NCBI RefSeq assembly: GCF_055900595.2
Contig: NZ_CM148325.1
Length of the DNA stretch: 64,000 bases
Reading direction: 5' to 3' (one strand)
Positions within the stretch are counted from its first letter, which is position 1, and every line of letters begins with the position of its first letter. The position numbers were made by a program, and so were the translations under genes. Shown here piece after piece: positions 10,740 to 40,359 of the stretch. The notes under the pieces were generated by a model, which saw only the letters and a program-made list of their open reading frames with translations, had not been told where the DNA came from and searched no databases.

Positions 10740-11630
10740 ATGCGTAAGTTCATTTTCGTATTGCTGACACTGCTTTTGGTCAGCCCTTTTTCCTTTGCGA
10801 TGAAAGGTATTATCTGGCAACCACAAAACCGTGATAGTCAGGTTACCGATACCCAGTGGCAGGGGCTGATGAGTCAGTTACGTTTGCAAGGCTTCGATAC
10901 CCTGGTTTTGCAATGGACCCGTTACGGCGATGCATTCACCCAGCCAGAACAGCGCGCGTTATTGTTTAAGCGTGCCGCAGCTGCGCAACAGGCTGGCCTG
11001 AAGCTGATTGTCGGGCTGAATGCCGATCCGGAATTTTTTATGCACCAGAAACAGTCATCCGCGGCGCTGGAAAGCTATCTTAATCGCCTGCTGGCTGCCG
11101 ATCTCCAGCAAGCCAGATTATGGAGCGCCGTACCTGGCGTAACGCCGGATGGCTGGTACATCAGCGCGGAAATTGACGACCTGAACTGGCGCAGCGAAGC
11201 CGTCCGTCAGCCCTTGCTAACGTGGTTAAACAATGCGCAGCGGCTGATTAGTGATGTTTCGGCAAAACCGGTTTATATCAGTAGTTTTTTCGCCGGAAAT
11301 ATGTCGCCCGATGGCTATCGCCAACTGCTGGAACACGTTAAAGCAACCGGCGTTAATGTCTGGGTTCAGGATGGCAGCGGCGTTGATAAACTCACCGCTG
11401 AACAGCGTGAACGTTATCTACAGGCCAGCGCCGATTGCCAAAGCTCCGCCCCAGCAAGCGGCATTGTTTATGAACTGTTTGTCGCCGGCAAAGGCAAAAC
11501 CTTTACCGCGAAACCGAAACCGGATGCAGAGATCGCCTCGCTGTTAGCGAAACGTTCCTCTTGCGGTAAAGACACGCTCTATTTCTCTCTGCGCTATTTG
11601 CCCGTCGCGCACGGCATTCTCGAGTATTAA
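10740..11630 (+). CDS. ybcH: YbcH, uncharacterised exported protein
   Basis: 296-aa ORF with signal peptide, abutting the nfrA stop; position matches the K-12 gene order. Confidence 0.75.
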   Translation: MRKFIFVLLTLLLVSPFSFAMKGIIWQPQNRDSQVTDTQWQGLMSQLRLQGFDTLVLQWTRYGDAFTQPEQRALLFKRAAAAQQAGLKLIVGLNADPEFFMHQKQSSAALESYLNRLLAADLQQARLWSAVPGVTPDGWYISAEIDDLNWRSEAVRQPLLTWLNNAQRLISDVSAKPVYISSFFAGNMSPDGYRQLLEHVKATGVNVWVQDGSGVDKLTAEQRERYLQASADCQSSAPASGIVYELFVAGKGKTFTAKPKPDAEIASLLAKRSSCGKDTLYFSLRYLPVAHGILEY

Positions 11631-11812
11631 ATCTCCTCCAGGTAAGTCGGGTACGACCTGGCTTACCTCTTTCGCTCTCGTCAGAATTCCATCAAGATTA
11701 ATTGCTAAAAAGCGTGCTAAAGAAAGAAGATCGTTATCGGCGAACGGGCCGATCACTCATGCAGGAAGCATAGATCCTTTGAGCGGAGTTTCTGATATCT
11801 GAGGAGTGCGAA

Positions 11813-12574
11813 ATGCAATTGAGCAGCAGTGAACCTTGCGTGGTGATCCTGACCGAAAAAGAGGTAGAGGTAAGCGTCAATAACCATGCTACGTTTACCC
11901 TTCCGAAAAACTACCTGGCCGCCTTCGCGTGCAACAATAACGTCATTGAACTCTCAACGTTAAATCACGTATTAATCACCCACATCAACCGTAACATCAT
12001 CAACGATTATCTGTTGTTTTTAAATAAGAACTTAACCTGTGTAAAGCCCTGGTCGCGGCTGGCTACCCCGGTTATCGCTTGTCATAGCCGTACACCGGAA
12101 GTGTTCCGGCTAGCCGCCAACCACAGCAAGCAGCAACCCAGCAAACCCTGCGAAGCGGAGTTGACGCGCGCATTGCTTTTTACCGTATTGTCTAACTTTC
12201 TTGAGCAATCGCGGTTTATTGCCCTACTGATGTATATCTTACGCAGCAGCGTCCGCGACAGCGTCTGCCGCATTATTCAAAGCGATATTCAGCATTACTG
12301 GAATCTGCGAATTGTCGCCAGTTCGCTATGTTTAAGCCCCAGCCTGCTCAAAAAGAAATTAAAAAACGAAAATACCAGCTATAGCCAGATTGTCACAGAG
12401 TGTCGTATGCGTTACGCCGTACAGATGTTATTGATGGATAACAAAAATATCACTCAGGTAGCGCAATTATGTGGCTATAGCAGCACGTCGTACTTTATCT
12501 CTGTTTTTAAGGCGTTTTACGGCCTGACACCGTTGAATTATCTCGCCAAACAGCGACAAAAAGTGATGTGGTGA
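11813..12574 (+). CDS. envY: EnvY AraC-family transcriptional regulator (porin thermoregulation)
   Basis: 253-aa ORF with C-terminal AraC-type HTH (QVAQLCGYSSTSYFISVFKAFYGLTP); AT-rich gene. Confidence 0.85.
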   Translation: MQLSSSEPCVVILTEKEVEVSVNNHATFTLPKNYLAAFACNNNVIELSTLNHVLITHINRNIINDYLLFLNKNLTCVKPWSRLATPVIACHSRTPEVFRLAANHSKQQPSKPCEAELTRALLFTVLSNFLEQSRFIALLMYILRSSVRDSVCRIIQSDIQHYWNLRIVASSLCLSPSLLKKKLKNENTSYSQIVTECRMRYAVQMLLMDNKNITQVAQLCGYSSTSYFISVFKAFYGLTPLNYLAKQRQKVMW

Positions 12575-12617
12575 AGGGCAAAGCGGAAACAGATAAGACT
12601 GGCATAAATCAAGAAGA

Positions 12618-12664
12618 AATGGCGCGCCCTGCAGGATTCGAACCTGCGGCCCACGACTTAGAAG
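12618..12664. repeat. Prophage attachment-site repeat (attR): 47-bp identical copy of the 3' part of argU
   Basis: 12618-12664 is identical to 53560-53606 (3' 45 nt of the argU tRNA plus 2 nt), then diverges; marks the distal prophage boundary. Confidence 0.8.
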
Positions 12665-13086
12665 TTCCTAGAACGACATTTTAAGTCAACAACTTACCGC
12701 GCCATCTCTGCGCTCACACGTCCCACTACCTCAAAACATGTAAAGCCTTGCAAGCCATTGTGAGGCCTTATGTGTCTCAGTTTTGTCCCTCTTTTTTGTA
12801 CTAAAAAACATAGTAATTGAGGATAAACCTCATGCTATTTTCGCTTATATGCCTCTAAAGGCATGGCACTTAAATAGATAAAAGCACCACAAAAGCATAA
12901 AAAACCACACAGTAAAACCGCAATATGAAACAATAACAGATAATTAAACCAAAAACAGATAGCGCATTGTGATAATCATTCAATACTAAACAAAATATAA
13001 ACAGTGGAGCAATATGTAATTGACTCATTAAGTTAGATATAAAAAATACATATTCAATCATTAAAACGATTGAATGGAGAACTTTT

Positions 13087-14040
13087 ATGCGGGCGAAACT
13101 TCTGGGAATATTCCTGACAACCCCTATTGCGATCAGCTCTTTTGCTTCTACCGAGACTTTATCGTTTACTCCTGACAACATAAATGCGGACATTAGTCTT
13201 GGAACTCTGAGCGGAAAAACAAAAGAGCGTGTTTATCTAGCCGAAGAAGGAGGCCGAAAAGTCAGTCAACTCGACTGGAAATTCAATAACGCTGCAATTA
13301 TTAAAGGTGCAATTAATTGGGATTTGATGCCCCAGATATCTATTGGGGCTGCGGGCTGGACTACTCTCGGCAGCCGAGGTGGCAATATGGTCGATCAGGA
13401 CTGGATGGATTCCAGTAACCCCGGAACCTGGACAGATGAAAGTAGGCACCCTGATACACAACTCAATTATGCCAACGAATTTGATCTGAATATAAAAGGC
13501 TGGCTCCTCAACGAACCCAATTACCGCCTGGGACTCATGGCCGGATATCAGGAAAGCCGTTATAGCTTTACAGCCAGAGGTGGTTCCTATATCTACAGTT
13601 CTGAGGAGGGATTCAGAGATGATATCGGCTCCTTCCCGAATGGAGAAAGAGCAATCGGCTACAAACAACGTTTTAAAATGCCCTACATTGGCTTGACTGG
13701 AAGTTATCGTTATGAAGATTTTGAGCTAGGTGGCACATTTAAATACAGCGGCTGGGTGGAAGCATCTGATAACGATGAGCACTATGACCCAGGAAAAAGA
13801 ATCACTTATCGCAGTAAAGTCAAAGACCAAAATTACTATTCTGTTGCAGTCAATGCAGGTTATTACGTAACACCTAACGCAAAAGTTTATGTTGAAGGCG
13901 CATGGAATCGGGTTACGAATAAAAAAGGTAATACTTCACTTTATGATCACAATGATAACACTTCAGACTACAGCAAAAATGGTGCAGGCATAGAAAACTA
14001 TAACTTCATCACTACTGCTGGTCTTAAGTACACATTTTAA
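13087..14040 (+). CDS. ompT: OmpT outer-membrane protease (omptin)
   Basis: 317-aa ORF with signal peptide and omptin family sequence; classical DLP12 b-region cargo. Confidence 0.9.
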   Translation: MRAKLLGIFLTTPIAISSFASTETLSFTPDNINADISLGTLSGKTKERVYLAEEGGRKVSQLDWKFNNAAIIKGAINWDLMPQISIGAAGWTTLGSRGGNMVDQDWMDSSNPGTWTDESRHPDTQLNYANEFDLNIKGWLLNEPNYRLGLMAGYQESRYSFTARGGSYIYSSEEGFRDDIGSFPNGERAIGYKQRFKMPYIGLTGSYRYEDFELGGTFKYSGWVEASDNDEHYDPGKRITYRSKVKDQNYYSVAVNAGYYVTPNAKVYVEGAWNRVTNKKGNTSLYDHNDNTSDYSKNGAGIENYNFITTAGLKYTF

Positions 14041-14289
14041 GAACGCCAACTAAAATTTCCCCGAGGTGAAAATCGCCCCGGGGAATAACTAGCCATTTCA
14101 ATGTAACAATTAACCCTTAAAATAAACCCAGAAGGTTATTAACTAAATCACATAGAAAACCATCAATTATAGTGTGTATAAAATAGCCGACAGCAACCCA
14201 ATTACAAATTAATGGTTCCAGAATATCACATCAAAAAACACGCTGTATAATATTATAATTAACATGTAGACAACTTGTAATAAACATTA

Positions 14290-15039
14290 TCAGTCAATTG
14301 TTTTGTTTATTCCATCTGTGACGCCGATTATTTTCTCAAAATAATGAGATGGCGTGACACCATAATAATCTTTAAATGCACATATGAAATATGAAGTACT
14401 GTTATAGCCACATTTCTGGGCTACGACATTGATAGAATAAGAGTTTGAAGTTATGAGTTTTTTTGCATACCTCATCCTAGTATCTCTCAATATTTCAGTA
14501 AATGACGTTCCTTCATCCCTTAATCTTTTTTTTATTAAACTTTCACTCGTATAAATCAATTCCGCAATATCTTTTAAATGCCATTGCCGCTCAATATTAA
14601 AACTGATTATTCCAGTAATTTTACATGTAAATGTATTTATATTTGTTAGTATAAATGAATTTACACTTTCGCGTTTTTTGAACATGGCAAGTAAGGATAT
14701 ACATAGTCTTTCTTTTAACCAAAGGGAGTGTGAGTCTGCTATTTTAATCCCTTCAAACAGAGAAAAAACAAGCGATAATGGAGGTTCCTCTTCAGCAATA
14801 TAGCCATTCTTATCAAGAGTAAATTTGCCAGGCAACTCATTATTCACGTCGATAAAAAAGGATAAACATGTTTTCTTATCTATATCAACAATTCTTAGTT
14901 TAGAGGGGCATACTGGTAACTCTCTTCTAATTTTGTCGCTTACAATAAACAATGAATTTTTTTTGAACGAGATAACTCTCCTGTTTATAATTAAATCAAA
15001 TGATTGACAGATGAAAACTACGGAGCAAACATAATCCAT
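14290..15039 (-). CDS. appY: AppY AraC-family transcriptional activator
   Basis: 249-aa AT-rich ORF with C-terminal AraC HTH ([26 protein letters not shown]). Confidence 0.85.
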
Positions 15040-15714
15040 CTTGCACCTATCATAAAATTAAAACAAGTTGATAGTAGTCAAATAACAGCCAATTAAATAC
15101 ACAATCATAATCAGGATGATGTGCATTTATATTTTTATACACAAAATTATAGTTTGCAAATTTTAATAAGTTTCATTTAAGATTAAATTATTATATGTAT
15201 ATTGTTTTTTATTCTAACGTATTTCAAAGTTACATTTTTCAACGCTTACTATGCTTTTTATTAACATAAACTCACTACAACGCACCTGAAACCTCTTGCT
15301 ATATATATGTCAACCGTTTGAATTTAAAATAAAAAGAGTATCATTTTTACTTGCATTTCTTATCAAGTCACATTCAACAACAGTAAAAAAACATTATTAG
15401 AACCATTCAATTAACAAAAAACCAACATCCAGCTTGCTTAATTTTTCTTTATTAAACGATATTGAAAATCAATTGATAAAATACATCTAAACAACCTTTT
15501 GGGGCGCAAAAGCATAACATCAAACAAACAAATAACACACCGAAAAAACTCACAATTAATAACCTATGATATACATACTGTTTATTATGGTTGAATAAGC
15601 CACTCGATATCTGGTGCTACGGAAGTGTCCACACGGTTTAGCAGCACCCGATACTTTTTCCAGGCTTCCAGCAACGAGTTTTCTTCCTCCGTTGCATATA
15701 CAGCTCACCTTTTT

Positions 15715-16008
15715 TCACCCACGATTAACCAACAGCCAGACCAGCAGACACGCCACCACCGGCACAGCAAAATCCATCAGGCTTGCCACATCCCATGCAC
15801 GTGTATCAAAACCGCCCCACCACGGCATATTCATTCGCTTGCCATGCCCGAACATTTCGATCCAGCGATATTCTGCCTGGGTGTGTTCACGCGCAATGAA
15901 GAACGTACAACCGGCTATCGCCCCGTAAGCCCAGTTTCCGGTAAAAAGACCAACCAGTACCTGCGCAGCCACAGCACAAAGTGCATGAAGGAAAGGTGTT
16001 ATATCCAT
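15715..16008 (-). CDS. Small hydrophobic membrane protein, function unknown, at the end of the tail-fibre remnant
   Basis: 97-aa ORF with two predicted transmembrane stretches; chosen over the overlapping plus-strand ORF 15625-16170 because of coherent hydrophobic segments and co-orientation with neighbouring phage genes. Confidence 0.4.
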   Translation of the reverse strand: MDITPFLHALCAVAAQVLVGLFTGNWAYGAIAGCTFFIAREHTQAEYRWIEMFGHGKRMNMPWWGGFDTRAWDVASLMDFAVPVVACLLVWLLVNRG

Positions 16009-16018
16009 TATTCCTCCT

Positions 16019-16723
16019 TTATCCGATATCGCTTCGGGAAGTTAATAACAACTTTAATTCTGACTCAAGTTCATCAACTCTTTCAGTCAGCTTCTGGATA
16101 TGGTGAATCAGTGGAACAACCAGACGTTCGTACATTACACCTTCGGCAACAAGGCCATTGCTGGAAATAGCTTCAGGAGCATCATCTTCGTTAGCTGGTC
16201 GCCAGTGTACAAACTGAGGGGCAATTTCTCCTACTTCCTCGGCAATCAATCCGTAGAACCCCCAGTCACGCCTGTCATTTTCGCATTGCGACCTGTACCA
16301 CACAGGGCGCATCCTGAAAATGACATCGGCGTGCTCTGAATCTATCGTCTCTACTGAATGTTTATAGCGGATAGACGATGTGGACCGCAGTACAGACGAA
16401 ATTGCAGGGTCAGGATTAAGATAAAGGTTTGCCGCCGCAGTAGTCGTGCCCAACCCCCATAAATAAAACGCTTCGCGGCCAGTCAGCGGGTAAAAATCAC
16501 CGCCATAACGACCGCTTTCCAGATCGTTCGCTTCCACTTTGTTTTTCAGCTTATTATCAACTTCAGTTTTTGTGTATCTGGTGCTGATATCCTGCTTTGC
16601 ACTGGTCATATCAATCTGAAGCGTTGATACTTTTCCGTTAATTGAGGAAATATCTTCCTTAGTTTTACTGACATCTCCCTTTAGCGTGGTGATATCTCCA
16701 GGAATTACTGTCGATGTAGCCAT
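16019..16723 (-). CDS. Phage tail-fibre C-terminal domain protein (coiled-coil plus putative chaperone-like C-terminus)
   Basis: 234-aa ORF; heptad-rich N-terminal half (TTLKGDVSKTKEDISSINGKVSTLQIDMTSAKQDIS) and C-terminal coiled coil typical of tail-fibre/spike tips. Confidence 0.5.
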   Translation of the reverse strand: MATSTVIPGDITTLKGDVSKTKEDISSINGKVSTLQIDMTSAKQDISTRYTKTEVDNKLKNKVEANDLESGRYGGDFYPLTGREAFYLWGLGTTTAAANLYLNPDPAISSVLRSTSSIRYKHSVETIDSEHADVIFRMRPVWYRSQCENDRRDWGFYGLIAEEVGEIAPQFVHWRPANEDDAPEAISSNGLVAEGVMYERLVVPLIHHIQKLTERVDELESELKLLLTSRSDIG

Positions 16724-16732
16724 TTGTCTCCC

Positions 16733-17014
16733 TCACATCCAGCCACGAAGTTGATGCTCAACAACAACCGCGTATTCATCGAATATTGACGGTGTTTTCA
16801 CATCATTAATGATGCGCACGTTTACAAAATATCCGTCTTCCTTAACACATACCGGCTCGCCATCTTCAGTAATTTCCCCGGTTTCTTTGTACACGTTACC
16901 TATCACATCAATGAGAACATTGTTCTGCATCACCTCGTCATCGTCATAACCAATGCTATCCATAAAGGCCGAAAAGTCGGCCTTGTCTGTGAATTTGATA
17001 ATTAAGTCTCGCAT
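16733..17014 (-). CDS. Hypothetical phage protein
   Basis: 93-aa acidic ORF, start overlaps the upstream tail-fibre-like gene stop (operon-like). Confidence 0.4.
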   Translation of the reverse strand: MRDLIIKFTDKADFSAFMDSIGYDDDEVMQNNVLIDVIGNVYKETGEITEDGEPVCVKEDGYFVNVRIINDVKTPSIFDEYAVVVEHQLRGWM

Positions 17015-18024
17015 TATATTACCTCTCCCATTTGTGCATCGGTTAATTCTTTATGCCATATACGAAAATTACGAATGTGACCGAAAAGATGACGTAGACC
17101 GCTATTAGTCTGTCCCCCAATCCTGAAGAAATAACCAGATTTAACACCGACATGATCCGTGGTTTTAGGAGTCCCATGCTGGGCATTGCTAACGAAATGC
17201 ACATTACCAGATTCATTTAAAACAAATCCAAGAACAGATTTTTGTTCAAATAATACTGGCGATACGGCGGCTACTGTACTACCGTTTTTATTGTGCATCG
17301 TAACACCAGGAAATAATGTTGAACTAATAGCAACACTTATATATTGACCCGGAGTTGTGCTCCCACCACTGGTATCAAAAATTCGTGGTGCTGCATTTGG
17401 CGTTTCGTTCCAGTTTGTATGAACTTCAGCTAGAAATGTTAAAGGTGGTGTACCGATATTGTTATTTGTTGGTATATTCACCATATCACTGGCTCTTGTG
17501 ACTGGCGTTGCCTCAGTAATAATAAACGAAGAAGCGCACGAACCGCCTTCGACCTGAGGAGTTGCAACATAAATATAATCATCTGCACCAGTGCTTCCCC
17601 CTTTTGGTGGTGCATATTGCACCATCGCACCGATCATATTTTCTGTATCAAGTGCCTTAATTGTTGCCTCAAAGAAAATCCATTTGCTTGCTTCATTTTT
17701 AACAGCCCTTGCAGTAATACGACTTGCAGCGCCGCCAGTTTTATCAATCGATAAATCTGTCATATTTAAGTAAGCATCACCCAGGAATTTGTAGGTAGAT
17801 CCATCATATTCTTCAAATCGTAATCGACATCTTAAATTTGGAGTCCCACTTTGTACCCTGCATGAGATAGTTACATACTTTTCATCGCCGGTAACATCAT
17901 ATCCTTTGCTTCCAGATACTGTGACAATAGAAATGGCTGAGGTTTGCCCCACCATTTCTGGTTTTAATGTGAATTTTGCGTACTGGAAACCAAAATCATC
18001 TACACCTGATGTATTTAAAATCAT
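17014..18024 (-). CDS. Phage tail fibre / receptor-binding-like protein, 5' end abutting IS1 (possibly truncated)
   Basis: ORF 17014-18048 begins with a non-ATG start inside IS1; first ATG (MILNTSG) at 18024; Gly/Thr/Ser-rich beta-type sequence with C-terminal motif NFRIWHKELTDAQMGEVI resembling lectin-like tail-fibre tips. Confidence 0.5.
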   Translation of the reverse strand: MILNTSGVDDFGFQYAKFTLKPEMVGQTSAISIVTVSGSKGYDVTGDEKYVTISCRVQSGTPNLRCRLRFEEYDGSTYKFLGDAYLNMTDLSIDKTGGAASRITARAVKNEASKWIFFEATIKALDTENMIGAMVQYAPPKGGSTGADDYIYVATPQVEGGSCASSFIITEATPVTRASDMVNIPTNNNIGTPPLTFLAEVHTNWNETPNAAPRIFDTSGGSTTPGQYISVAISSTLFPGVTMHNKNGSTVAAVSPVLFEQKSVLGFVLNESGNVHFVSNAQHGTPKTTDHVGVKSGYFFRIGGQTNSGLRHLFGHIRNFRIWHKELTDAQMGEVI

Positions 18025-18049
18025 ATTTGATGACGGTAATGACTCCAAC

Positions 18050-18553
18050 TTATTGATAGTGTTTTATGTTCAGATAATGCCCGATGACTTTGTCATGCAG
18101 CTCCACCGATTTTGAGAACGACAGCGACTTCCGTCCCAGCCGTGCCAGGTGCTGCCTCAGATTCAGGTTATGCCGCTCAATTCGCTGCGTATATCGCTTG
18201 CTGATTACGTGCAGCTTTCCCTTCAGGCGGGATTCATACAGCGGCCAGCCATCCGTCATCCATATCACCACGTCAAAGGGTGACAGCAGGCTCATAAGAC
18301 GCCCCAGCGTCGCCATAGTGCGTTCACCGAATACGTGCGCAACAACCGTCTTCCGGAGCCTGTCATACGCGTAAAACAGCCAGCGCTGGCGCGATTTAGC
18401 CCCGACATAGCCCCACTGTTCGTCCATTTCCGCACAGACGATGACGTCACTGCCCGGCTGTATGCGCGAGGTTACCGACTGCGGCCTGAGTTTTTTAAGT
18501 GACGTAAAATCGTGTTGAGGCCAACGCCCATAATGCGGGCAGTTGCCCGGCAT
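18050..18553 (-). CDS. insB: IS1 transposase InsB
   Basis: 167-aa ORF identical in character to IS1 InsB ([25 protein letters not shown]...). Confidence 0.95.
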
Positions 18554-18747
18554 CCAACGCCATTCATGGCCATATCAATGATTTTCTGGTGCGTACCGGG
18601 TTGAGAAGCGGTGTAAGTGAACTGCAGTTGCCATGTTTTACGGCAGTGAGAGCAGAGATAGCGCTGATGTCCGGCGGTGCTTTTGCCGTTACGCACCACC
18701 CCGTCAGTAGCTGAACAGGAGGGACAGCTGATAGAAACAGAAGCCAC
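18472..18747 (-). CDS. insA: IS1 protein InsA
   Basis: 91-aa [43 protein letters not shown]..., classic InsA with zinc finger. Confidence 0.95.
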
Positions 18748-18797
18748 TGGAGCACCTCAAAAACACCATCATACACTAAATCAGTAAGTTGGCAGCA

Positions 18798-19430
18798 TCA
18801 CCCATTACCGCCCATAATGATGATATTAGTGACGCCCTCACTAAATTCTGCGTAGCTCTCAATATCATCATTTGGATCAAAAGTTTCTTTATCCTTACCT
18901 GACCACTCAGCACCGCCAGACTGAGTGATGATATTTTGTGGTTTAATATTCCAGTCCAGCTCATAACGTTCAATACCATCGCCCTCAATGATATTTTTCC
19001 CCGTTGTGATTGCCTGAACGGCAAGCCATTCAATACGTGCACGAATAGCTTTAGCCTGATTTACAATCGCCTGTTTAACTTTAATATTACGCGCTCCAAA
19101 AGCATTGTATTGCTCAGGTGATACACCAGCAGGGCGCACAGCTAACTTATTTGGATCAATGCTGCTTTTCGGCTTCATATAGCCTGGACGAATTGTTTTT
19201 GATTCGAACCCTTCGTCACGTGAAACTTTACTACCCACCATAGGAGAACAAAACGCTGCAATTGGGATATTTGGATCGTCGATTGTATCAAGAATAATAT
19301 CGCGCGATTCAAACATTACCGAGCGAGTAAAAAACAAACTGGTAAACAACGCATTTAGTTGTTTTTGTACATCTACAGCATTAACCACCTGTACAAGCTG
19401 AGTAGGCGAATATAAATCAACCATACGCAT
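18798..19430 (-). pseudogene. Divergent lambda-E-family major capsid protein gene, 3' end truncated by IS1
   Basis: From Met at about 19430 the translation aligns with lambda gpE (FFTRSVMFESRD..., PGYMKPK, NIITQSGGAEWSGKDKETFDPNDDIESYA) and terminates at the IS1 junction after NIII, roughly half the length of gpE. Confidence 0.65.
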
Positions 19431-19640
19431 CCTCTTTGCATTCATTAAAAATAATTGTGGATATATGCTATCACCGATATTTGTCATGCGAACACATGCA
19501 ACCGAGTGCAATGTTGTATAAAGTTTTGGGGTGACAACTTCAGTGCGGACAATTAGTGTTAATATCTTCACTCCCTTTGGTCGGGATTTATGTAGCATGC
19601 CGGAAAATTTATTTTTTCTGGCTTTTTTTATTGGCAATAT

Positions 19641-20090
19641 TTAAAACGGGATATCATCTCCCCATTGCTCATTATCTCCCACTGGTGGCTGGCTTCCTTG
19701 CTGATCTGCCTGTTGTTTTGCTCTGTTCAGTGCGTCAGTAGCCTGCCCCTGTTGGCCTTTATTGCCGCCCGGTCGCACCGATCGCGCACTGATTACGCTG
19801 TCTGCGATAACCTGCCAGCCCTGCCGCGTTTCGCCGTTCTGTCCAGTCCACTGGCTCATCTGCATGTTACCCGCCACGCTCAGGAGTTCGCCTTTGTGAT
19901 GCTTTGCCAGCGCGTCGGCTTGTCTGCCAAACGCCAGGACAGATAACCACATCGTCGCCTGACCGTCATCCGACTGACTGCAGGGCAGTGATACCGCCAT
20001 ACGCGCCAGCGTCATGGGGGTGCCCTTGCTGGTCTGTTTTGTCTGCGGGTCGTCCACCAACCGCCCGTAAACTGATATTTGCGCCGTCAT
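19641..20090 (-). CDS. ssb: Single-stranded DNA-binding protein (SSB), phage/plasmid type
   Basis: 149-aa ORF with OB-fold-like N-terminus, Gly/Gln-rich linker and acidic C-terminal tail ending DDIPF. Confidence 0.8.
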   Translation of the reverse strand: MTAQISVYGRLVDDPQTKQTSKGTPMTLARMAVSLPCSQSDDGQATMWLSVLAFGRQADALAKHHKGELLSVAGNMQMSQWTGQNGETRQGWQVIADSVISARSVRPGGNKGQQGQATDALNRAKQQADQQGSQPPVGDNEQWGDDIPF

Positions 20091-20332
20091 GCTGCCTGCT
20101 CTCCGGACTTAATATTGATTGTTGTCACTTCCTCCGCTTCAGCAATCTCCCGTTCGGTCAGAGTGGCAAAGTTTGCAGCCGCCGTTGTCATGAATGCGCT
20201 AATCAGTTCGGGATGTGCTTTCGCGTATCCTTCCCCGGCGTTGCGGTCGATGATTTTTATCGACACCCTTAACCAGTGTTCCGTCAAATCAAGGGCGTGC
20301 GATTGTGATTTTTTTGTGTGCTTCGCTGTCAT
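20087..20332 (-). CDS. Hypothetical protein upstream of ssb
   Basis: 81-aa ORF overlapping the ssb start by 4 nt. Confidence 0.4.
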   Translation of the reverse strand: MTAKHTKKSQSHALDLTEHWLRVSIKIIDRNAGEGYAKAHPELISAFMTTAAANFATLTEREIAEAEEVTTINIKSGEQAA

Positions 20333-20384
20333 AGGCTTTATCTCACAGCAGTAAATTAAAATTTTTGCGTTTTAACCCTTCACC

Positions 20385-20605
20385 TGTTCACCTTTTGATA
20401 TTTTCTCTTTTAATTCATAATGTTAATGGGTGAACAGTTTCACAAAAACTATTCACCAACTGTTCACCACTGTTCACCCTTGAAGCTCAATAAACAATCA
20501 AAAAGGTGAACAGTGAATAGTTTGGTGAACAGTTCATAAATAACTGTTCACCCTATAATATACTGATATAAAAGATATTTATGACAGGGTGAACAGTGGT
20601 GAACA
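20385..20605. repeat. P4-type replication origin/crr-like iteron cluster (TGTTCACC octamers)
   Basis: Nine copies of TGTTCACC / GGTGAACA in both orientations (20385, 20429, 20461, 20471, 20505, 20524, 20545, 20588, 20598) with an AT-rich stretch, immediately 3' of the primase gene. Confidence 0.75.
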
Positions 20606-20619
20606 GTTATTCCATAAGT

Positions 20620-22440
20620 TTAATTTTTGCTATCGTCATTAGTGACCGATACACATGATGGCATCCAGTCTTCTGATTCCTCCGTCAGTGTCACGTTTGA
20701 ACGCAAACCGTGCTTCGTTTTCCGTTTCATATACTCCCTGCCATATTCCGCCATTGCCCCCGGCATATCTTTACCGAAGCGCGTCAGTGTTACAGGTTTA
20801 CCAAACCCATGTGCCCTCATATAAGCCAGATAGGCATGATAGAGATACCTGCGTGGGCTAAATGGCACAATTTCAGCATTACCCACTAACAGGCCATCAC
20901 ACATTACCGATGCCATGAGATAGCCGCAGAAGTCCACCAGCGAATCCCCCTCTCGCTTTATCGCCAGTGCTTCTTCAGATTTCTGCTGCTCATATAACAG
21001 GCGTCTGGCTTCGTCCTGATCATCAAACCGTGTAAGCAGATGACGAATCACTACCGCCAGCTCACCTTCTATTTTTTCCGCCAGCATCGAATCGCGTTCG
21101 TTCTCCGGTACAACTTCCGAAAAATTGAATATCACCCGACGACGTGAGATCCCCCCGCTGCGGTCACTGAATGACATGGCGTTATTGTTAACCGCCAGCA
21201 CTACTGCCGGAATACGCGTTGAATAGGGGGCTTTGTGTTTCGGGTCAATTGCCACCTTGTCACCGCCTGTAATGGCCTTAATCCCTGCCCCATCACCAGC
21301 GTAGCGGGTCATATCCGGCATGATAATCAGCGAAAAGCCAACCACTAACGCACGTTCCCTTGCATCTTCCAGCGCCTTCATGCTTGCTGATACTGTATTA
21401 GCCTTACCCGCCAGCATGGTGCAAATCTCCGCCATCACACTTTTACCACTTCCCCCCGGCCCTGTTACCTCAATGAATAACTGCCAGTCGTACCGGTTCG
21501 CCAGCACCATGAATAATGCCGCCAGTACGCGATCTGCCTTGCGGTCATTCTCAGCCACCGAACGGCGCAACCACTTCCAGAAATTCGGCGCATGTGTTGC
21601 CAGCGTTTCCCCCTCTGCTGGTGGGCTGAAAGGTAATTCACTGGCAATTAACAACCAGTCGTTTTTGTTATGCTCCCGAAAATTACCTGTTCTGGTATCA
21701 AATACCCCGTTACTGAATCCAATCAGGTTACGGGCTGTATTCCCCATTACAGGCAAACTTAACTTCATGGTATCTACCGCCGATTTAATGGCGTTCTGCG
21801 AATAGCTGATCTCCACATCAATGAAAATCTGCGCCATAGCACGCTGTAACTCTTTATCCTGAACCGGCTCCCATACAACGCCGTTGTAATGATGAACGGT
21901 GTCAGAGTCGGCATTGATTGCCAGTTCGCCGCCGTAATGTGCCAGGAGAACTTCACCGCGCTGGCTGGCCCCCATCTGATTCAACGCCAAAGATGAAGCA
22001 CGCTCGTCATTTTTGCGCTCTGCCTTCTTCACTGGCAGTTCAATCACCAGACTTTCCCCATGCTCCGCTTCAGCTTTTAGGCCGACAAGGCGCGGAGTCC
22101 AGTCTTCAGGCTCTCGATCAACAAAGCTACGGTAACAACGTGCTTCCTTTACGCCTGCAATAGCAAGTAATGTCGCAACCTTCGTCAGATTTTTCTCTGC
22201 GATCTTTCCGGCACGATAAACACGCACATAATGACGGCCTTCATCGATAATTTGCATATCATCCAGGTTTTCCAGTTGTTCCGTACCCAGAATTACTGGT
22301 GGTGTATCATCTGCTGCAATATGCTTACCCGCCCATTCATTCCATTCTTTTGCATGGCTCCAGGCATCACTGCCAGCAAAAATGATGACTTCTGTCATTT
22401 TGTCGCGCGGTTGGTATTTTAAGTTCGGAGCACGTTTCAT
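20620..22440 (-). CDS. P4-alpha-family primase/helicase (phage/plasmid primase, P-loop NTPase)
   Basis: 606-aa ORF with Walker A GPGGSGKS and primase C-terminal-type sequence; adjacent to TGTTCACC iterons. Confidence 0.8.
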   Translation of the reverse strand: MKRAPNLKYQPRDKMTEVIIFAGSDAWSHAKEWNEWAGKHIAADDTPPVILGTEQLENLDDMQIIDEGRHYVRVYRAGKIAEKNLTKVATLLAIAGVKEARCYRSFVDREPEDWTPRLVGLKAEAEHGESLVIELPVKKAERKNDERASSLALNQMGASQRGEVLLAHYGGELAINADSDTVHHYNGVVWEPVQDKELQRAMAQIFIDVEISYSQNAIKSAVDTMKLSLPVMGNTARNLIGFSNGVFDTRTGNFREHNKNDWLLIASELPFSPPAEGETLATHAPNFWKWLRRSVAENDRKADRVLAALFMVLANRYDWQLFIEVTGPGGSGKSVMAEICTMLAGKANTVSASMKALEDARERALVVGFSLIIMPDMTRYAGDGAGIKAITGGDKVAIDPKHKAPYSTRIPAVVLAVNNNAMSFSDRSGGISRRRVIFNFSEVVPENERDSMLAEKIEGELAVVIRHLLTRFDDQDEARRLLYEQQKSEEALAIKREGDSLVDFCGYLMASVMCDGLLVGNAEIVPFSPRRYLYHAYLAYMRAHGFGKPVTLTRFGKDMPGAMAEYGREYMKRKTKHGLRSNVTLTEESEDWMPSCVSVTNDDSKN

Positions 22441-22724
22441 TTGTTACCTCCGGCAACTAACATTGCCCGAATTTTGCGGATATAGCCTGCGGCACGCCTC
22501 TGATTATCTGTCTTGCAATTTTTTACCAGAATGAAATCTCTTTCGAACTGCTGACGCGGCATAACACATTCAAAATCATAACCATCACGCAAATAAGAGA
22601 CACGACGATCATCAACCGAAATAATCTTTACCCGATAGCCATAGCTGTCTTTGAAAATATCCCCAAGGCTGATTTTTGAATGAGTTTGACCGCTGGCAAT
22701 AAAGCCAGAAAATTTATTTTTCAT
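22437..22724 (-). CDS. Hypothetical protein of the P4-like module
   Basis: 95-aa ORF overlapping the primase start (operon-like). Confidence 0.45.
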   Translation of the reverse strand: MKNKFSGFIASGQTHSKISLGDIFKDSYGYRVKIISVDDRRVSYLRDGYDFECVMPRQQFERDFILVKNCKTDNQRRAAGYIRKIRAMLVAGGNK

Positions 22725-22727
22725 TTT

Positions 22728-22952
22728 TTATTCTCCGGTATAGCTCTGGTCGTGTATTTTTATAGCTTCATCCAGCTCTTTGATGACAGGATCAAGTAAC
22801 GTAATTAACGCTCCAGCTAAATTAGCATCCCGTTCATCGTGTTCCGCATTTGTTGTCCCATCAAGCCAGGTTGATAAGATTTCTCGCATATTTTTGCCAC
22901 AAACGAGCGCGTTTTCAGCATGTGTCAGCACTTTAAAATAAAGATCATTCAT
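22728..22952 (-). CDS. Hypothetical protein of the P4-like module
   Basis: 74-aa acidic ORF in tandem with downstream genes. Confidence 0.4.
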   Translation of the reverse strand: MNDLYFKVLTHAENALVCGKNMREILSTWLDGTTNAEHDERDANLAGALITLLDPVIKELDEAIKIHDQSYTGE

Positions 22953-23259
22953 GGCACACCTCCTGACGAATACGGGCGGCGAATATCATCACGTAGCCAG
23001 TTGGGGATTGCAGCCGGGCTTCCTGTTCGCTGGCGGCCTCGATGGTAATCACGCGCGGTTGTGCCGTACTCAGGGCGATAAAACGCCAGATGTATTTATT
23101 CAGGTTGTGCGGGTCCCGCCCTTGCGGGTGTGTGGTATGATTTCTCATAGCTACCTCGATACTGTTGCTATCGTTGGTGGTTAGAAGCCCGTTGGTGTTC
23201 CTAGCACCTTCGGGCTTTGCTTTTTTAAGTGCCTCCGTGTTAAGGTGGTCACCTAACAA
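22945..23259 (-). CDS. Hypothetical protein of the P4-like module (true start probably the internal Met at 23148)
   Basis: 104-aa ORF; 5' part overlaps an opposite-strand ORF, so a shorter 67-aa product from 23148 is more plausible. Confidence 0.35.
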   Translation of the reverse strand: MLGDHLNTEALKKAKPEGARNTNGLLTTNDSNSIEVAMRNHTTHPQGRDPHNLNKYIWRFIALSTAQPRVITIEAASEQEARLQSPTGYVMIFAARIRQEVCHE

Positions 23260-23479
23260 TGAAAAGGCTAATTCAATAGGTGGTCACTTGTCAACGATCA
23301 AACGCGATAAAAGTCCTAAGGGTGATGGGCAATCTCCACAATTCAGAATGCGAATTTCTCCAGAGCTAAAAGAGCAATTCGACAAAGAAGCGCAGAGCGA
23401 CGGCATAAGCCTAGCCAACTGGCTTAAAGAATTAGGGCGCAAAGAGCTGCTACGGCGCGGTATTGAACCAAAAGGATAA
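23165..23479 (+). CDS. Putative ribbon-helix-helix DNA-binding protein (true start probably internal)
   Basis: C-terminal 45 residues (QFRMRISPELKEQFDKEAQSDGISLANWLKELGRKELL) fit an Arc/CopG-type RHH pattern; two GGTGGTCAC direct repeats lie just upstream of the likely start. Confidence 0.45.
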   Translation: MLSLVVRSPLVFLAPSGFAFLSASVLRWSPNNEKANSIGGHLSTIKRDKSPKGDGQSPQFRMRISPELKEQFDKEAQSDGISLANWLKELGRKELLRRGIEPKG

Positions 23480-23506
23480 GAATAATTGAAGTCAAGGAGC
23501 TAACAC

Positions 23507-23863
23507 ATGAAATACGAATTCTTCGCAACAAGTAGCAGTAGTTTGGATGTATACATAGTCACTGTATCAAACGATTCTGGCTCTCTAATCATGACTTGTA
23601 ATTGTCCAGCAGGAAGTAAAGGTATTCTATGTAGACACCGTAAAGCTTTAATTACCGGAAAAATCCGCGGTATATTCACTCCCCCAAGAAGGAATAATCC
23701 CGAAAAATTACAAGAAGCTATAAATTTAATAGCCACATATGGCATAGATAAAACATTAAAGTTGTACACTGATGAGTTAGAACGAGCAGAACAGACTTGG
23801 ATAAGTGTTCGCGATAATTTGAGAGCAATGATAAACGCTCTTGTTGAACCACCTAAATATTGA
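23507..23863 (+). CDS. Small SWIM-zinc-finger-like protein (cargo gene)
   Basis: 118-aa AT-rich ORF with CxC-x8-CxH motif (CNCPAGSKGILCRH); followed by a hairpin terminator. Confidence 0.55.
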   Translation: MKYEFFATSSSSLDVYIVTVSNDSGSLIMTCNCPAGSKGILCRHRKALITGKIRGIFTPPRRNNPEKLQEAINLIATYGIDKTLKLYTDELERAEQTWISVRDNLRAMINALVEPPKY

Positions 23864-23929
23864 ACTGTTCACATTGCCTATCAGGCGATAACCTCGTATT
23901 CTGATTAAGGCTAACTATATACTCACATT

Positions 23930-23955
23930 GGCGACCAATTCTGGTCGCCTTTATC
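23930..23955. terminator. Hairpin between two convergent cargo genes (likely bidirectional intrinsic terminator)
   Basis: GGCGACC-aattct-GGTCGCC stem-loop followed by TTTATC; sits between the convergent 118-aa and 284-aa genes. Confidence 0.55.
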
Positions 23956-23994
23956 TACCATTTTTATAATATCATAGATTAAGAGTGTTAATCC

Positions 23995-24849
23995 TTACCC
24001 CCTGAATGGAATTGATGAGGATTTAATTTCCACAGAACCAAATCCTCTTGAATCCAAAAACATTTTTATACCAGCCTCAATAAAATCATAATCGCTTGTC
24101 GGGCCAATTGTAATGCTTTTAATTGGTAACTTTCTATTATCTTTATTATTAATAATGATATAAGGGATGATACCATTATTATTTATTCTAAATTTCACAT
24201 CTGGCATTTGTATCCACGGAGTAAACACCAGTCTAAATTCATTTTCTTCGATAAAACTAGGATGTTTAAAAAATGGGATATATTTAGATATAAATTGATA
24301 CGTAGAGACCATTGTTACAAAATGATCATTCATTTCTTTAATGTTAATACCATTACAAGAAAAAAACTCATCCAACTCCTTACTCATCTTTGTAATATCG
24401 TCATTATTTGAATATATAACATCATGTGCAACACAATTTAAATAAATATTTTGACAAAAACTCACAAGTTCATCCGCATCAAATTCAATGCAAACGCCCT
24501 GTTTATTTCCGTAACCTCTCCACTGACTTAACTTATCGTTTTCTTTACAAAAAGATATGCTATAAACATGTTTATCAATCCCTTTTTCTTTTTGTAACTT
24601 CCCTTTCTCATACATGTCAAGAGACTTGAGCAAAATAGTTTTCTTATCTTTTGGGATGATATTATCATCAACTATTTTAATTGTATTTCGAAAACATTCA
24701 CATCCATGGTTAGACTCCTCTTTATCATTTAAGAAATATATATTTGTAGCCCATAAAGAATTAGAGTCTAATATACCTTTCAAACCAAAAAGATCTGTAT
24801 AATGAAATATAGCCACAATGCCCCACCTAATAGTTAAGTCGTTTCCCAC
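23995..24849 (-). CDS. DUF2971-like protein (candidate anti-phage cargo gene)
   Basis: 284-aa very AT-rich ORF; motifs FHYTDLFGLKGIL, YFLNDKEE, SISFC...LSQWRGYGN..GVCIEFD resemble my recollection of DUF2971; overlaps the alpA stop (co-transcribed). Confidence 0.5.
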   Translation of the reverse strand: MGNDLTIRWGIVAIFHYTDLFGLKGILDSNSLWATNIYFLNDKEESNHGCECFRNTIKIVDDNIIPKDKKTILLKSLDMYEKGKLQKEKGIDKHVYSISFCKENDKLSQWRGYGNKQGVCIEFDADELVSFCQNIYLNCVAHDVIYSNNDDITKMSKELDEFFSCNGINIKEMNDHFVTMVSTYQFISKYIPFFKHPSFIEENEFRLVFTPWIQMPDVKFRINNNGIIPYIIINNKDNRKLPIKSITIGPTSDYDFIEAGIKMFLDSRGFGSVEIKSSSIPFRG

Positions 24850-25064
24850 TCACCTCGAATCCATGCCTGCACTTCTGAAAGACGATATGCAACAGCAGTG
24901 GAACCAATCTTGATCCGCTTAGGAAATTTTCCTTCCTTCTCCAGCTTCCAGCGTGTGCTGTTCGCAAGAGTGGTTAGCTCCCGACATTCTTTCTCACGGA
25001 TCATACGATCGATGTTAGGAATGTACTCCAGACCCTTTTTATCAACAATTGCCATTTTTTTCAT
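24834..25064 (-). CDS. alpA: AlpA-family phage transcriptional regulator/excisionase-like HTH protein
   Basis: 76-aa ORF directly downstream of the integrase, sequence pattern (ELTTLANSTRWKLEKEGKFPKRIKIGSTAVAYRLSEVQAWI) typical of AlpA. Confidence 0.8.
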   Translation of the reverse strand: MKKMAIVDKKGLEYIPNIDRMIREKECRELTTLANSTRWKLEKEGKFPKRIKIGSTAVAYRLSEVQAWIRGEWETT

Positions 25065-25065
25065 G

Positions 25066-26352
25066 TTAACCAGCCTTTTGTTTGAGGATTGTCACTTTTG
25101 AATCAGCACCTGCGATGCTATTGAGATATGTAGTCCAGAGTTCCAGAGCATCCAGTTTTTTAGCCATAAACTTACTCCGGTTGTAAACACCCGCCACGCC
25201 AGGTAGCGCATGGCCTAACAGTTGTTCTACTACATAAAATTCAACACCGAGATCACTTAGATGAGTAGATAGCGTTCTTCTAAGGTCGTGTAGTGACCAT
25301 TGTTTTTCATGGCCCAAACGTTTACCGATTTTCCCCCCAATCTTGCTTACGCTTTCTCTAATTCGCAGACTTCCCAGCACATAACCAGTATGTTTTGTCT
25401 CTTCGTGAACATCCGTTACCCACTGTCGTAGAATTTCAGGTACTGGTCTGACGATTTCAACACCAGTTTTTGAGTGATCTTTTGGTACCGTCCAAACCCA
25501 ACTTTCGAGATCCCATTCGCTCCATTCAGATAATCGGGCTTCACTCATTCGACATCCAAATACTGTACAAAGCACAAACATTTTTCGCGTGTATTCAGAC
25601 ATTAGTTTTAAATCAGGCTCGACAAAAATTGCCTTCCAGAGCTGGCCGAGTTCGGCTTCATCCAGAACCCGATCCCGCTTACCTGCAATCTGCCCCACAT
25701 CACTCATGCGCAAATCCTTTAAAGCATCACACGTCGCGTACTGGCGTACCCGACAAAAACGAAGAGCTAATTTAGTGTCAGAAAAAACATACGCCGCCAT
25801 AACTGGTGCATTACGTTTAATTCGGTCAAAACAGTCCAGCCATTCATATAGGTGAGTGTCATTTACGGGCAAATGACCGATATAGGGAAAGATATGCTTT
25901 CGAAATCTGCCAAGCGTTACAGCATGAGTTTTACGACGCACCTTACAGTAATTTTCATACCAGTAATTTAGTGCATCCTCCACTGTGACCGGCTTTAAGC
26001 GTTCTTCAGCCTGAATCTTAATCTGGATACGCGGATCACGTTTGTCAGCCAACCAACCACGGCACTCGTCGCGCTTTTCCCTTGCCTGTTTGAGTGACAT
26101 ATCAGGATATTTACCCAACGTTAGCCAGACCGGAGCAGCCCGGCCACCTGCTAACCTGTAGAAGAAAACAAAGCTCACAGCCCCTTTAGTACTCACACGA
26201 ATAGAAAGCCCCTTTCCATCAGCAATGGTGATCTGCTTTTCTCTGGGTTTCCCCAGATATCCTTTAAGCGCTTTGTCGCTCAGTTTGTTCTCGCCAGCCA
26301 TTTTTAGCCCCAAAAAGCAATACAAGCTGCAATACAGAGATGATTGCAACAC
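25066..26352 (-). CDS. Tyrosine recombinase/integrase (P4-type)
   Basis: 428-aa ORF with C-terminal catalytic region containing HDLRRT and LLGHA...Y motifs; int-alpA arrangement typical of P4-like islands. Confidence 0.85.
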   Translation of the reverse strand: MLQSSLYCSLYCFLGLKMAGENKLSDKALKGYLGKPREKQITIADGKGLSIRVSTKGAVSFVFFYRLAGGRAAPVWLTLGKYPDMSLKQAREKRDECRGWLADKRDPRIQIKIQAEERLKPVTVEDALNYWYENYCKVRRKTHAVTLGRFRKHIFPYIGHLPVNDTHLYEWLDCFDRIKRNAPVMAAYVFSDTKLALRFCRVRQYATCDALKDLRMSDVGQIAGKRDRVLDEAELGQLWKAIFVEPDLKLMSEYTRKMFVLCTVFGCRMSEARLSEWSEWDLESWVWTVPKDHSKTGVEIVRPVPEILRQWVTDVHEETKHTGYVLGSLRIRESVSKIGGKIGKRLGHEKQWSLHDLRRTLSTHLSDLGVEFYVVEQLLGHALPGVAGVYNRSKFMAKKLDALELWTTYLNSIAGADSKVTILKQKAG

Positions 26353-26433
26353 ACAGATAACGAGGAAAATTCAGTGAAAGCACCAGATAAACTTATTCTT
26401 TATTATCAAAAGATTAAGTGTAAAAACCAGCAA

Positions 26434-26709
26434 CTACACGAAAGCCTCAGAAAGCCATGCTAAGTGCTTGGGTTTGACATAACCCGGCGTAAATTCAGAG
26501 GTGGAGCCGCCACGGGATCGGATAACCTCACCGGAAACAATCGGCGAAACGTACAGCGCCATGTTTACCAGTCCCGGAATTTGTGAGAGATAGACTTTTT
26601 CCGTGGTGAAAGGATAGGTTTCACGGAAAAACAGGCGCAGAAACAGCGGATCGAACTTAAAGTGATGCTGGGTCGATGCCAGTAATTCTGCAGTTGTATA
26701 TACAGACAT
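26434..26709 (-). pseudogene. E: Lambda major capsid protein E, N-terminal ~80 codons only (truncated)
   Basis: MSVYTTAELLASTQHHFKFDPLFLRLFFRETYPFTTEKVYLSQIPGLVNMALYVSPIVSGEVIRSRGGSTSEFTPGYVKPKH is near-identical to lambda gpE N-terminus, then diverges and stops. Confidence 0.85.
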
Positions 26710-26764
26710 AAATTATTTCCATAAAAAAAGCCGCACAGGCGGCCTTTGTTGATGAAGGGGAAGA

Positions 26765-27097
26765 TTAAACGATGCTGATTGCCGTTCCGGCAAACGCGGT
26801 CCGTTTTTTAGTCTCGTCGCTGGCAGCCTCCGGCCAGAGCACATCCTCATAACGGAACGAGCCGGACTTGTAGAACGTCAGTGTGGTGCTGGTCTGGTCA
26901 GCAGCAACCGCCAGAATGCCAACGGCTGCACCGTCGGTGGTGCCATCCCACACAACCAGCTTACGGGTAGTGCCATCCAGCATCAGCGGGGTCATTGCAG
27001 GCGTTTTCGCACTCAATCCGCCAGGCGCAATTGCTGTATGAGCCGGATCACTGTTACCCAGCGGCTGGTAATGGTTAAACTCTTCTTTTGTCGCCAT
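26765..27097 (-). CDS. D: Head decoration protein D
   Basis: 110-aa ORF closely matching lambda gpD ([14 protein letters not shown]...FAGTAISIV). Confidence 0.9.
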
Positions 27098-27106
27098 AAC
27101 TGCCTC

Positions 27107-28418
27107 TTATACCGGTAAAGCTTCAGGTGTATTAAGTAATTCTTTATTGGTATCAGATGCCAGGTTACCTGCAGCCAGCGGTGCCGGTGCACCCTGCATC
27201 AGACGATCCAGCGCAGTGTCACTGCGCGCCTGTGCACTCTGTGGTGCTGCAGCCAGAATGCGGCGGGCCGTTTCCACGGTCATTCCGGGGGTTTCGGCCA
27301 GAACGCGCGCCTGTTCTTCGCGTCCGTGAGCCTCCTCACAGTTGAGGATCCCCATAATGCGGCTGTTTTCTGCCGCAACCGCTGCGGTGATCTGCGCGTT
27401 CACGTCCGGCTGCGCCGCGCTGGCGTTTTCGCCCTCCGTCGCTGGCACCACGTCAGTAACGTCAGCCTGCGAAGCAGTGGCTGAAACAGTTGTTGATTGA
27501 GTCTCTTTGGTCATTCGCCCTCCTGAGAGACGGGATTTACGCGCATCCAGTGCATCACGCATGACGGTGATCGCATCGGTGCTGTTAACAAGTTCATCAG
27601 CCAGTCCGGCATCAATGGCCTCCTGACCGCTGTACACTGCAGCCTCGGTATCCAGCACAGCCTGCACAGACAGGCCGGTATATGCCGACACCTTCTGCGC
27701 AAACATCTGGCGGGTTGCGTCCATCCGGGACTGCAGTGTCTCCCGGACGTCATCCGGAAGATGGCTGTAGGGATTGCCATCCACCTTATGGCTGCCGCTG
27801 TAAATCAGCGTGATTTCCACACCCTGTTTCTCCAGGGCAGCACCGTAATTACTGTGAGCCATCATGACGCCGATGGAGCCTGTCCGGGCGGTCTGCGTGA
27901 CCAGACGCCGGGAGGCGGCACTGGCAAGCAGCTGACCTGCACTGCAGTTCATGTCGTTGGCCAGCGCCCATACCGGTTTTATGTCACGCACACGGGCGAT
28001 GATGTCAGCGCAGTCAAATGCCCCCGCCACCATTCCGCCTGGCGTGTCCATATCGAGCAGAATGCCGTCCACCATCGGGTCGCTGGCAGCCTGTTGCAGA
28101 CGGGCGATAATGCCGTTGTAACCGGTCATCCCCGAGTACGGCTGCAGCGCCCGCGTCCGGCTGACCAGCGTGCCGGACACCGGCAGCACGGCGATGCCGT
28201 TCATGACCTGATAACTGCGGGCCTGTCGTGGTCCGTCATCATCACCGGATAATGCCAGCGTCGCGAGTGCCTCCTGGGCAGTCAGGCTGTCGCCGGACAC
28301 CGCATCCGTCAGGCGGCTGATCCCAAGCTGGCCTGCAAGCGCACAAAAGAAAACCCGCGCATAGGCGGGTTCAAGCATCAGCGGCTCATTAAAGGCCATG
28401 CTGGCAATATGCGGGAGA

Positions 28419-28438
<20 letters not shown>
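27107..28438 (-). CDS. C: Head maturation protease/scaffold C (S49 family; Nu3 nested)
   Basis: ORF 27107-28552; start placed at the codon giving VTAELRNLPHIASMAFNEPL as in lambda gpC; overlaps portal gene end. Confidence 0.85.
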
Positions 28439-32119
<3,681 letters not shown>

Positions 32120-32145
<26 letters not shown>

Positions 32146-33901: not shown

Positions 33902-33932
33902 TTGCATGAGTTGCCCATCGATATGGGCAGCT

Positions 33933-40333: not shown

Positions 40334-40359
40334 GGCGGGTTGATTATTGAAAATCAAAG

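Follow-up and report, generated by a model that had tools for sequence, protein, structure and literature searches.

An IS1-marked deletion of about 17.8 kb in a lambdoid prophage carrying the remnant of a helper-embedded satellite at the argU/DLP12 site

In Escherichia coli K-12, the DLP12 prophage retains its early and lysis genes and terS and has lost its morphogenesis genes, and nohD there is followed directly by tail-fibre-assembly pseudogenes and appY. IS1-mediated adjacent deletions were reportedly described by Reif and Saedler in 1975, and Turlan and Chandler are said to have described IS1-mediated adjacent deletions of the replicative, or "abortive transposition," kind in 1995. Deletions of 11-66 kb beside a single resident IS1 arise readily in E. 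coli and fit abortive transposition (Wan et al. 2023, PMC10569738), while in the E. coli long-term evolution experiment IS copies without target-site duplications have been ascribed to either adjacent deletion or IS-IS recombination (PMC11708052). The helper-embedded PICI (HE-PICI) was published by Tommasini, Mageeney and Williams (2023, PMC10111431), and a doubled motif with fixed spacing from the att centre is specific to this group (PMC10111431). All of the components of the locus presented here, namely IS1, an IS1-associated deletion, an HE-PICI, and decay of the prophage at the DLP12 site, are already known biology, and the locus is a case of ordinary prophage decay.

The stretch of DNA analysed (64,000 nucleotides; hereafter the window) contains, at the argU/DLP12 site adjoining appY-ompT-envY, a lambdoid prophage whose major capsid gene E is occupied near codon 80 by an 11capE-type satellite (Table 1). 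The chromosomal genes cus-nfrBA-ybcH-envY-ompT-appY lie on one side and the prophage on the other. The helper prophage keeps its early, lysis, and head-left genes, but the 3' part of E and the morphogenesis tail genes FI-J are gone, so it is predicted to be unable to make virions. The early region (33216-52777: bet, replication, an S24 repressor-type peptidase, and lysis genes) is only 94-98% identical to the sister lineage where it can be aligned, and elsewhere does not align, unlike the chromosomal flank, which is 99.98% identical; the divergence, as read from these alignments, suggests mosaic exchange among lambdoid prophages at the argU/DLP12 site. An IS10-like element of 1329 bp (35823-37151), encoding a 402-aa transposase and annotated as ISVsa5 in relatives, lies in the ompC/nmpC-like porin gene of the prophage, and the same site without the element reads TGCTAAGCA in a sister strain.

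Table 1. Positions of prophage, satellite, and IS1 features in the window
Feature	Position	Strand	Remarks
Distal tail-fibre genes, retained	15715-17014	minus	three ORFs
97-aa ORF, distal tail fibre	15715-16008	minus	
234-aa tail-fibre-domain protein, S74 chaperone domain	16019-16723	minus	
93-aa ORF, distal tail fibre	16733-17014	minus	
Helper stf, 3' fragment	17014-18034	minus	C-terminal 340 of 794 residues; abuts IS1
Left junction 9-mer TTTGATGAC	18026-18034		stf-side breakpoint; 980-2 locus (L002) position 32264
IS1 (IS1A-like), intact, 768 bp	18035-18802	minus	IRL end at 18802, IRR end at 18035
insB' frame (167 aa)	18050-18553	minus	PF03400 (2.3e-78)
insA (91 aa)	18472-18747	minus	PF12759 (4.7e-31), PF03811 (1.3e-21)
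Satellite major capsid gene (E-like), truncated	18798-19424	minus	start at 19424; runs into IS1
HE-PICI remnant, 11capE type	18803-26474	minus	integrase, att, motif, gene order
Right junction 9-mer CATTACCGC	18803-18811		satellite-capsid-side breakpoint; 980-2 locus (L002) position 14475
Satellite SSB	19641-20090	minus	
Satellite primase	20620-22440	minus	
Satellite DUF4222 gene	22437-22724	minus	
Satellite DUF2971 gene	23995-24849	minus	in variable zone
Satellite alpA	24834-25064	minus	
Satellite int	25066-26301	minus	Arm-DNA-bind_3 and Phage_integrase domains; 410/411 identical to Eco567.11capE integrase
HE-PICI-specific doubled arm motif TGTATTGCAGCTTGTATTGC	26317-26336	minus	one exact match, about 132 bp inside attL
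attL identity block AACCCAAGCA	26465-26474	minus	at KPKH codons of E fragment
Helper major capsid gene E, 5' fragment (about 82 codons)	26465-26709	minus	Phage_cap_E profile positions 1-78; cut by satellite integration
Helper head/packaging genes D, S49 protease, portal, W, terL, terS (nohD), retained	26765-32665	minus	collinear with 980-2

Two separate fragments of E-family capsid genes lie in the window (19424-18803 and 26709-26465), and the truncated gene beside IS1 belongs to the satellite nested in the prophage rather than to the prophage itself. Aligned with the intact 346-aa protein of E. coli 980-2, the satellite ORF keeps residues 1-207 (...NIIIMGGN), to which IS1 supplies just one Gly codon and a TGA stop; the fragment covers positions 4-183 of the 329 in the Phage_cap_E profile and is identical to the capsid protein of the type element Eco567.11capE at 206 of 207 residues. 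A first-pass annotation of this DNA described the ORF as cut after NIII and finishing in IS1; it does end in IS1, but the cut lies four codons later (MGGN, residue 207). That annotation missed the satellite's ownership of the capsid gene, the loss of attR and of the late zone, and the exact cut point. For annotation, the value of the distinction is that the capsid gene beside IS1 is the satellite's, while the prophage's own is a short fragment 7.7 kb away; automated pipelines would call both partial major capsid proteins and overlook the nested structure.

In four relatives (980-2, S1bESBLb, WP7-S17-ESBL-04, and NRG857c) the prophage E gene is present as two pieces, 246 bp from the 5' end and 789 bp from the 3' end. 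Between them lies an 11-kb element with a variable zone and genes for integrase, AlpA, an Icd-like protein, DUF4222, a D5-type primase, SSB, an E-like capsid protein, decoration protein, regulator, and TerS, which is the published HE-PICI (PMC10111431). The satellite in the window is 99.1% identical in nucleotide sequence to Eco567.11capE over 18803-23092 and 24845-28804. Its genes all read from the minus strand, in the direction of the helper late operon, and its zones follow the order of Gram-negative PICIs (int/alpA, Bro/variable, primase replication, and late), the late zone ending at capsid codon 207. The variable zone (23092-24845) is unlike that of the type element and contains the gene for the DUF2971 protein along with plus-strand ORFs whose counterparts in a relative (locus L001) carry the annotations SWIM zinc-finger (about 23507-23863) and HicB-like antitoxin. 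The attL block is identical to the block listed for Eco567.11.E_Phage_cap_E_80 (PMC10111431 supplement), and an attL region of about 160 nt has one mismatch to the published attL. This 10-bp block, AACCCAAGCA, occurs once in the window, its attR copy falling in the deleted interval (980-2 locus L002, position 17584). The doubled motif tgTGTATTGCantgTGTATTGCa is expected to flank the attP centre at fixed distances. In the window one exact copy remains, at the published spacing of about 132 bp, and that at about 81 bp is deleted; intact 980-2 has both, with the attR-side copy at L002 17487. Judged by an integrase of the 11capE clade, capsid identity, the site in the E fragment, the attL block, and the remaining copy of the doubled motif, the satellite is an E:Phage_cap_E:80 HE-PICI, and the loss of attR marks it, on the same sequence grounds, as a remnant rather than an intact member. 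Having lost attR, the attR-side motif, 40% of its capsid gene, and the genes for decoration protein, regulator, and TerS, the satellite is predicted to be unable to excise or assemble; the absence of attR and of the helper tail and capsid genes likewise predicts that excision and mobilisation would fail on induction of the helper. Both helper prophage and satellite are, as far as gene content indicates, immobilised, and one ordinary IS1 event would have fixed the two in place.

The deletion was measured against E. coli 980-2 (locus L002), which carries the same prophage undeleted at the argU/DLP12 site and in which the full stf comes after J and lom. Window positions 8297-18034 align to L002 42001-32264 and 18803-23198 to L002 14475-10078, with order and orientation kept and 99.1-99.2% identity on both sides, and IS1 stands in place of L002 14476-32263. 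The missing interval is 17,788 bp as measured on 980-2, although the satellite late zone varies among relatives and that of the true ancestor may differ. The breakpoints are exact to the base and read, in window orientation and with junctions marked by slashes, ...TTTGATGAC / TTGTTCCAC...TTCTTCCATA / CATTACCGC..., or in longer form ...ATATTTGATGAC / TTGTTCCAC ... TTCTTCCATA / CATTACCGCC.... By the annotation of 980-2, the missing interval holds codons 208-346 of the satellite capsid gene, genes for a decoration protein, an HTH regulator, a small terminase, and DUF2971, the 3' fragment of the second capsid gene (E), the whole tail module (FI, FII, Z, U, V, G, T, H, M, L, K, I, and J), and, beyond it, lom together with codons 1-455 of stf (the 5' 1.36 kb). 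A single IS1 is now found, as read in the 64-kb window, where about 17.8 kb is missing, from satellite capsid codon 208 to stf codon 455. Because the flanks are collinear parts of one prophage and the interval between them has been replaced, this is a deletion and not a simple insertion. The first-pass annotation had proposed an IS1-mediated deletion or rearrangement, rather than a simple insertion, that removed the rest of the capsid gene and most tail genes, with a tail-fibre-like gene abutting the element. The abutting gene is the 3' fragment of stf (18034-17014), and alignment to an intact relative, which that annotation had suggested as a check, supports the proposal when run on 980-2: the flanks are 17,788 bp apart there in the same order and orientation, and the interval holds the rest of the capsid gene together with FI-J, lom, and 5' stf. 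The annotation had also suggested looking for another IS1 with the reciprocal junction in the genome; this search was run within the window, where 18035-18802 is the sole IS1 copy. With 64 kb of the genome covered, relocation of the missing segment to another part of it is a formal possibility; as an inversion or translocation, it would leave TTGTTCCACTTTG... or ...GGTATTTCTTCCATA beside another IS1.

The IS1 itself has both ends, GGTAATGACTCC... and ...GGCAGCATCACC, with imperfect terminal inverted repeats GGTGATGCTGCCAACTTACTGAT and GGTAATGACTCCAACTTATTGAT, and is 99.5-99.7% identical to copies in relatives annotated as IS1A family. It encodes the Pfam domains DDE_Tnp_IS1, HTH_Tnp_IS1, and Zn_ribbon_InsA and has the A6C -1 frameshift motif AAAAAAC at IS1 position 306. 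Its transposase genes are co-directional with the late genes of phage and satellite. A possible chimeric ORF begins at 18048 on the minus strand, at a TTG in the IS1 IRR that is in frame with the stf fragment (MESLP-SSNMIL...). This TTG together with co-directional IS1 transcription could allow the predicted expression of the tail-fibre C-terminal domain and of the downstream fibre genes.

What is unusual for IS1 at this position is the missing target-site duplication. Repeat lengths of 7-14 bp were considered, allowing a shift of at most 3 bp at each boundary, and no candidate with fewer than two mismatches was found; the single candidate with two mismatches needs shifted ends that take in IS1 bases. 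The best k-mer common to the 30-bp flanks is a misplaced 6-mer, and the flanking 9-mers (TTTGATGAC and CATTACCGC) agree at three of nine positions, so the earlier statement that IS1 lacks a target-site duplication is borne out with the same 9-mers. As controls, four of five IS1 copies of related loci have perfect 8-9 bp duplications, and the IS10-like element of the window has a perfect 9-bp duplication, TGCCAAGCA. Since simple insertions in these controls keep their duplications, the absence at the window IS1 is real and unusual for IS1. It is what is expected for an IS1 at a deletion point, and it counts against simple insertion but not against the identity of the element as IS1.

Two routes to the deletion have to be weighed. 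We favour, with moderate confidence, a one-step adjacent deletion over recombination between two IS1 copies. An ordinary IS1 insertion at one or other breakpoint would have come first, and the resident copy would then have undergone intramolecular replicative ("abortive") transposition, in which one IS1 end kept its original flank while the other attacked the same DNA molecule at a distance of 17.8 kb. What lay between would have been lost as a circle, leaving one IS1 without a target-site duplication. A hypothetical precursor with a simple insertion in the capsid gene would have the junction TCCATACATTACCGC / GGTAATGACTCC, and one with a simple insertion in stf would read GCAGCATCACC / TTTGATGAC / TTGTTCC. 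No precursor of this kind, that is, a simple IS1 insertion at either exact breakpoint, occurs among 5,426 complete E. coli genomes, and because none was found the one-step route and recombination between two IS1 copies are not separable.

The competing route begins with independent IS1 insertions, in direct orientation, in the satellite capsid gene and in stf; homologous recombination between these copies would then have removed 17.8 kb and one IS1. It is credible, though we hold it to be somewhat improbable. The surviving IS1 would hold one flank from each insertion, and the product would be identical: no duplication, collinear flanks, and a single IS1. Recombination between IS copies is documented as a frequent source of elements that lack duplications (PMC11708052), many E. 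coli carry IS1 at 10-40 or more places, and in an O121 relative IS1 is found four times within 24 kb of the homologous region. On the other hand, this route requires two insertions in one 18-kb interval plus recombination; neither a single-insertion intermediate nor a genome with both insertions is present among the 5,426 complete E. coli genomes; and the IS1 deletions of this size seen experimentally arose beside a single IS1 (PMC10569738). In the one-step route, either the capsid-side or the stf-side breakpoint could have served as the anchor. A possible IS1 hot spot at the capsid junction (see below) was considered as a pointer to the side of the original insertion and set aside, because the first insertion and the intramolecular attack would be equally likely to land on a preferred target.

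A false deletion, produced by collapse or mis-joining of two, or of unrelated, IS1 copies during assembly, is very unlikely. IS1 is a multicopy repeat of the kind at which short-read assemblies break, and the public contigs with either junction all end in or near IS1, none reading through both. The window, however, runs uninterrupted through IS1 and the 1.3-kb IS10-like element, which is typical of finished or long-read assemblies, and its flanks are two parts of one prophage, correctly ordered and oriented, which a random mis-join would not give. The capsid-IS1 junction also recurs in two independent read sets, in Logan contigs (L006 and L007) that both end 23-28 bp into IS1 and that match the chimeric protein made of the truncated capsid and the added Gly; the precursor and the deleted state would look alike in these contigs. 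On the other side, the stf-fragment protein is found on draft contigs of three other assemblies, all of which stop 6-10 nt short of the left junction and so lend indirect support, and a search for the 31-nt left junction in a collection of genome contigs gave no matches. Among the 5,426 complete E. coli genomes, the left junction has no match, while the sole match to the right junction is a separate insertion, offset by 3 bp, in an O121 strain. Sister strains, moreover, have lost the same region independently. A simple IS1 insertion, whether with a decayed duplication or between genes that were already adjacent, is scarcely credible and was ruled out by the alignment to 980-2, since beyond the general fact that duplications can erode with time nothing speaks for it, whereas the flanking 9-mers disagree under every shifted alignment, the flanks are otherwise 99-100% identical to relatives, too close a match for local decay, each of the two flanking genes breaks off within its ORF, and the flanks are adjacent, with or without IS1, in none of the 5,426 complete E. 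coli genomes; natural adjacency without IS1 and 8-9 bp repeats were the two observations that the first-pass annotation had named as contrary to its reading, and neither was found.

The insertion in E. coli O121 201805972 (NZ_CP119441.1, locus L003 11533-12300) interrupts the corresponding capsid gene of a homologous satellite, is oriented like the window IS1, and has a 9-bp duplication, TACCACCCA. Its own duplication and the 3-bp offset from the window junction show that it is independent of the event in the window. The capsid-gene target, ...ACATTACCGCCCA, holds CATTACC, which is the terminal heptamer of IS1, GGTAATG, read on the opposite strand, and this suggests targeting directed by the transposase. 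Targets of IS1 reportedly resemble IS1 ends (Galas, Calos and Miller, 1980), although a literature search for text in support of this resemblance found none. From these sequences the capsid junction is to be regarded as a genuine IS1 target, made by transposase, while the order in which the two junctions formed does not follow from this. It is a tentative and rather doubtful step further to suppose that this position is a sequence-directed hot spot at which IS1 repeatedly knocks out satellites and seeds deletions that disarm helper and satellite, a reading that rests on two events noticed after the fact; the possible hot spot is a minor, testable lead. In the same O121 locus, another IS1 (L003 20401-21168) is without a target duplication, with flanks ...AAGAAAAATTG and TAATTTCCTGC..., and lies beside a truncated integrase gene, which suggests a second IS1-associated rearrangement there.

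The closest chromosomal relatives of the window, such as Z0117EC0005, are 99.98% identical to it over 18 kb. In Z0117EC0005 an overlapping 30.3 kb (L002 1017-31286) has been lost with no IS and 3-bp microhomology, and at the junction (locus L005 23510-23512) the 5' end of terS is fused to stf, with the satellite and all head and tail genes removed. Because this deletion differs from that in the window, at least two independent events within one clone complex have removed the morphogenesis region of the prophage, and the IS-free loss in sister lineages illustrates the repeated decay of the prophage at the DLP12 site.

The prophage in the window resembles DLP12 of K-12 in its chromosomal site, its lambdoid character, and its retention of early, lysis, and terS genes with loss of morphogenesis genes. 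The fusion of terS to stf in Z0117EC0005 is a DLP12-type deletion, whereas the prophage in the window has other breakpoints, has IS1 at the scar, and retains terS through D and a satellite remnant. The satellite shares with Eco567.11capE the gene order int-alpA-variable zone-icd/DUF4222-primase-SSB-capsid, the doubled TGTATTGC motif about 132 bp from the att centre, and insertion into a lambda E homologue around codon 80, co-oriented with the late operon. The helper of Eco567.11capE is at icd and that of the window satellite at argU/DLP12, and the window satellite also differs in its variable zone and in the loss of attR, the second arm motif, and the late zone past capsid codon 207. The long-term evolution experiment (PMC11708052) concerned IS150 and a time series that shows precursors, while the window presents IS1 in a single snapshot; in both cases, IS copies without duplications are read as adjacent deletion or IS-IS recombination. 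Experimental IS1 deletions removed DNA at a selected chromosomal locus, and the DNA lost here consists of prophage and satellite morphogenesis genes; the state before the deletion is unobserved in the window, where the route through one IS is inferred. The window nonetheless has what IS1 adjacent deletions have, namely a single intact IS1 at the deletion point, no duplication, and the loss of one contiguous interval, and its 17.8 kb falls within the 11-66 kb seen experimentally in E. coli (PMC10569738).
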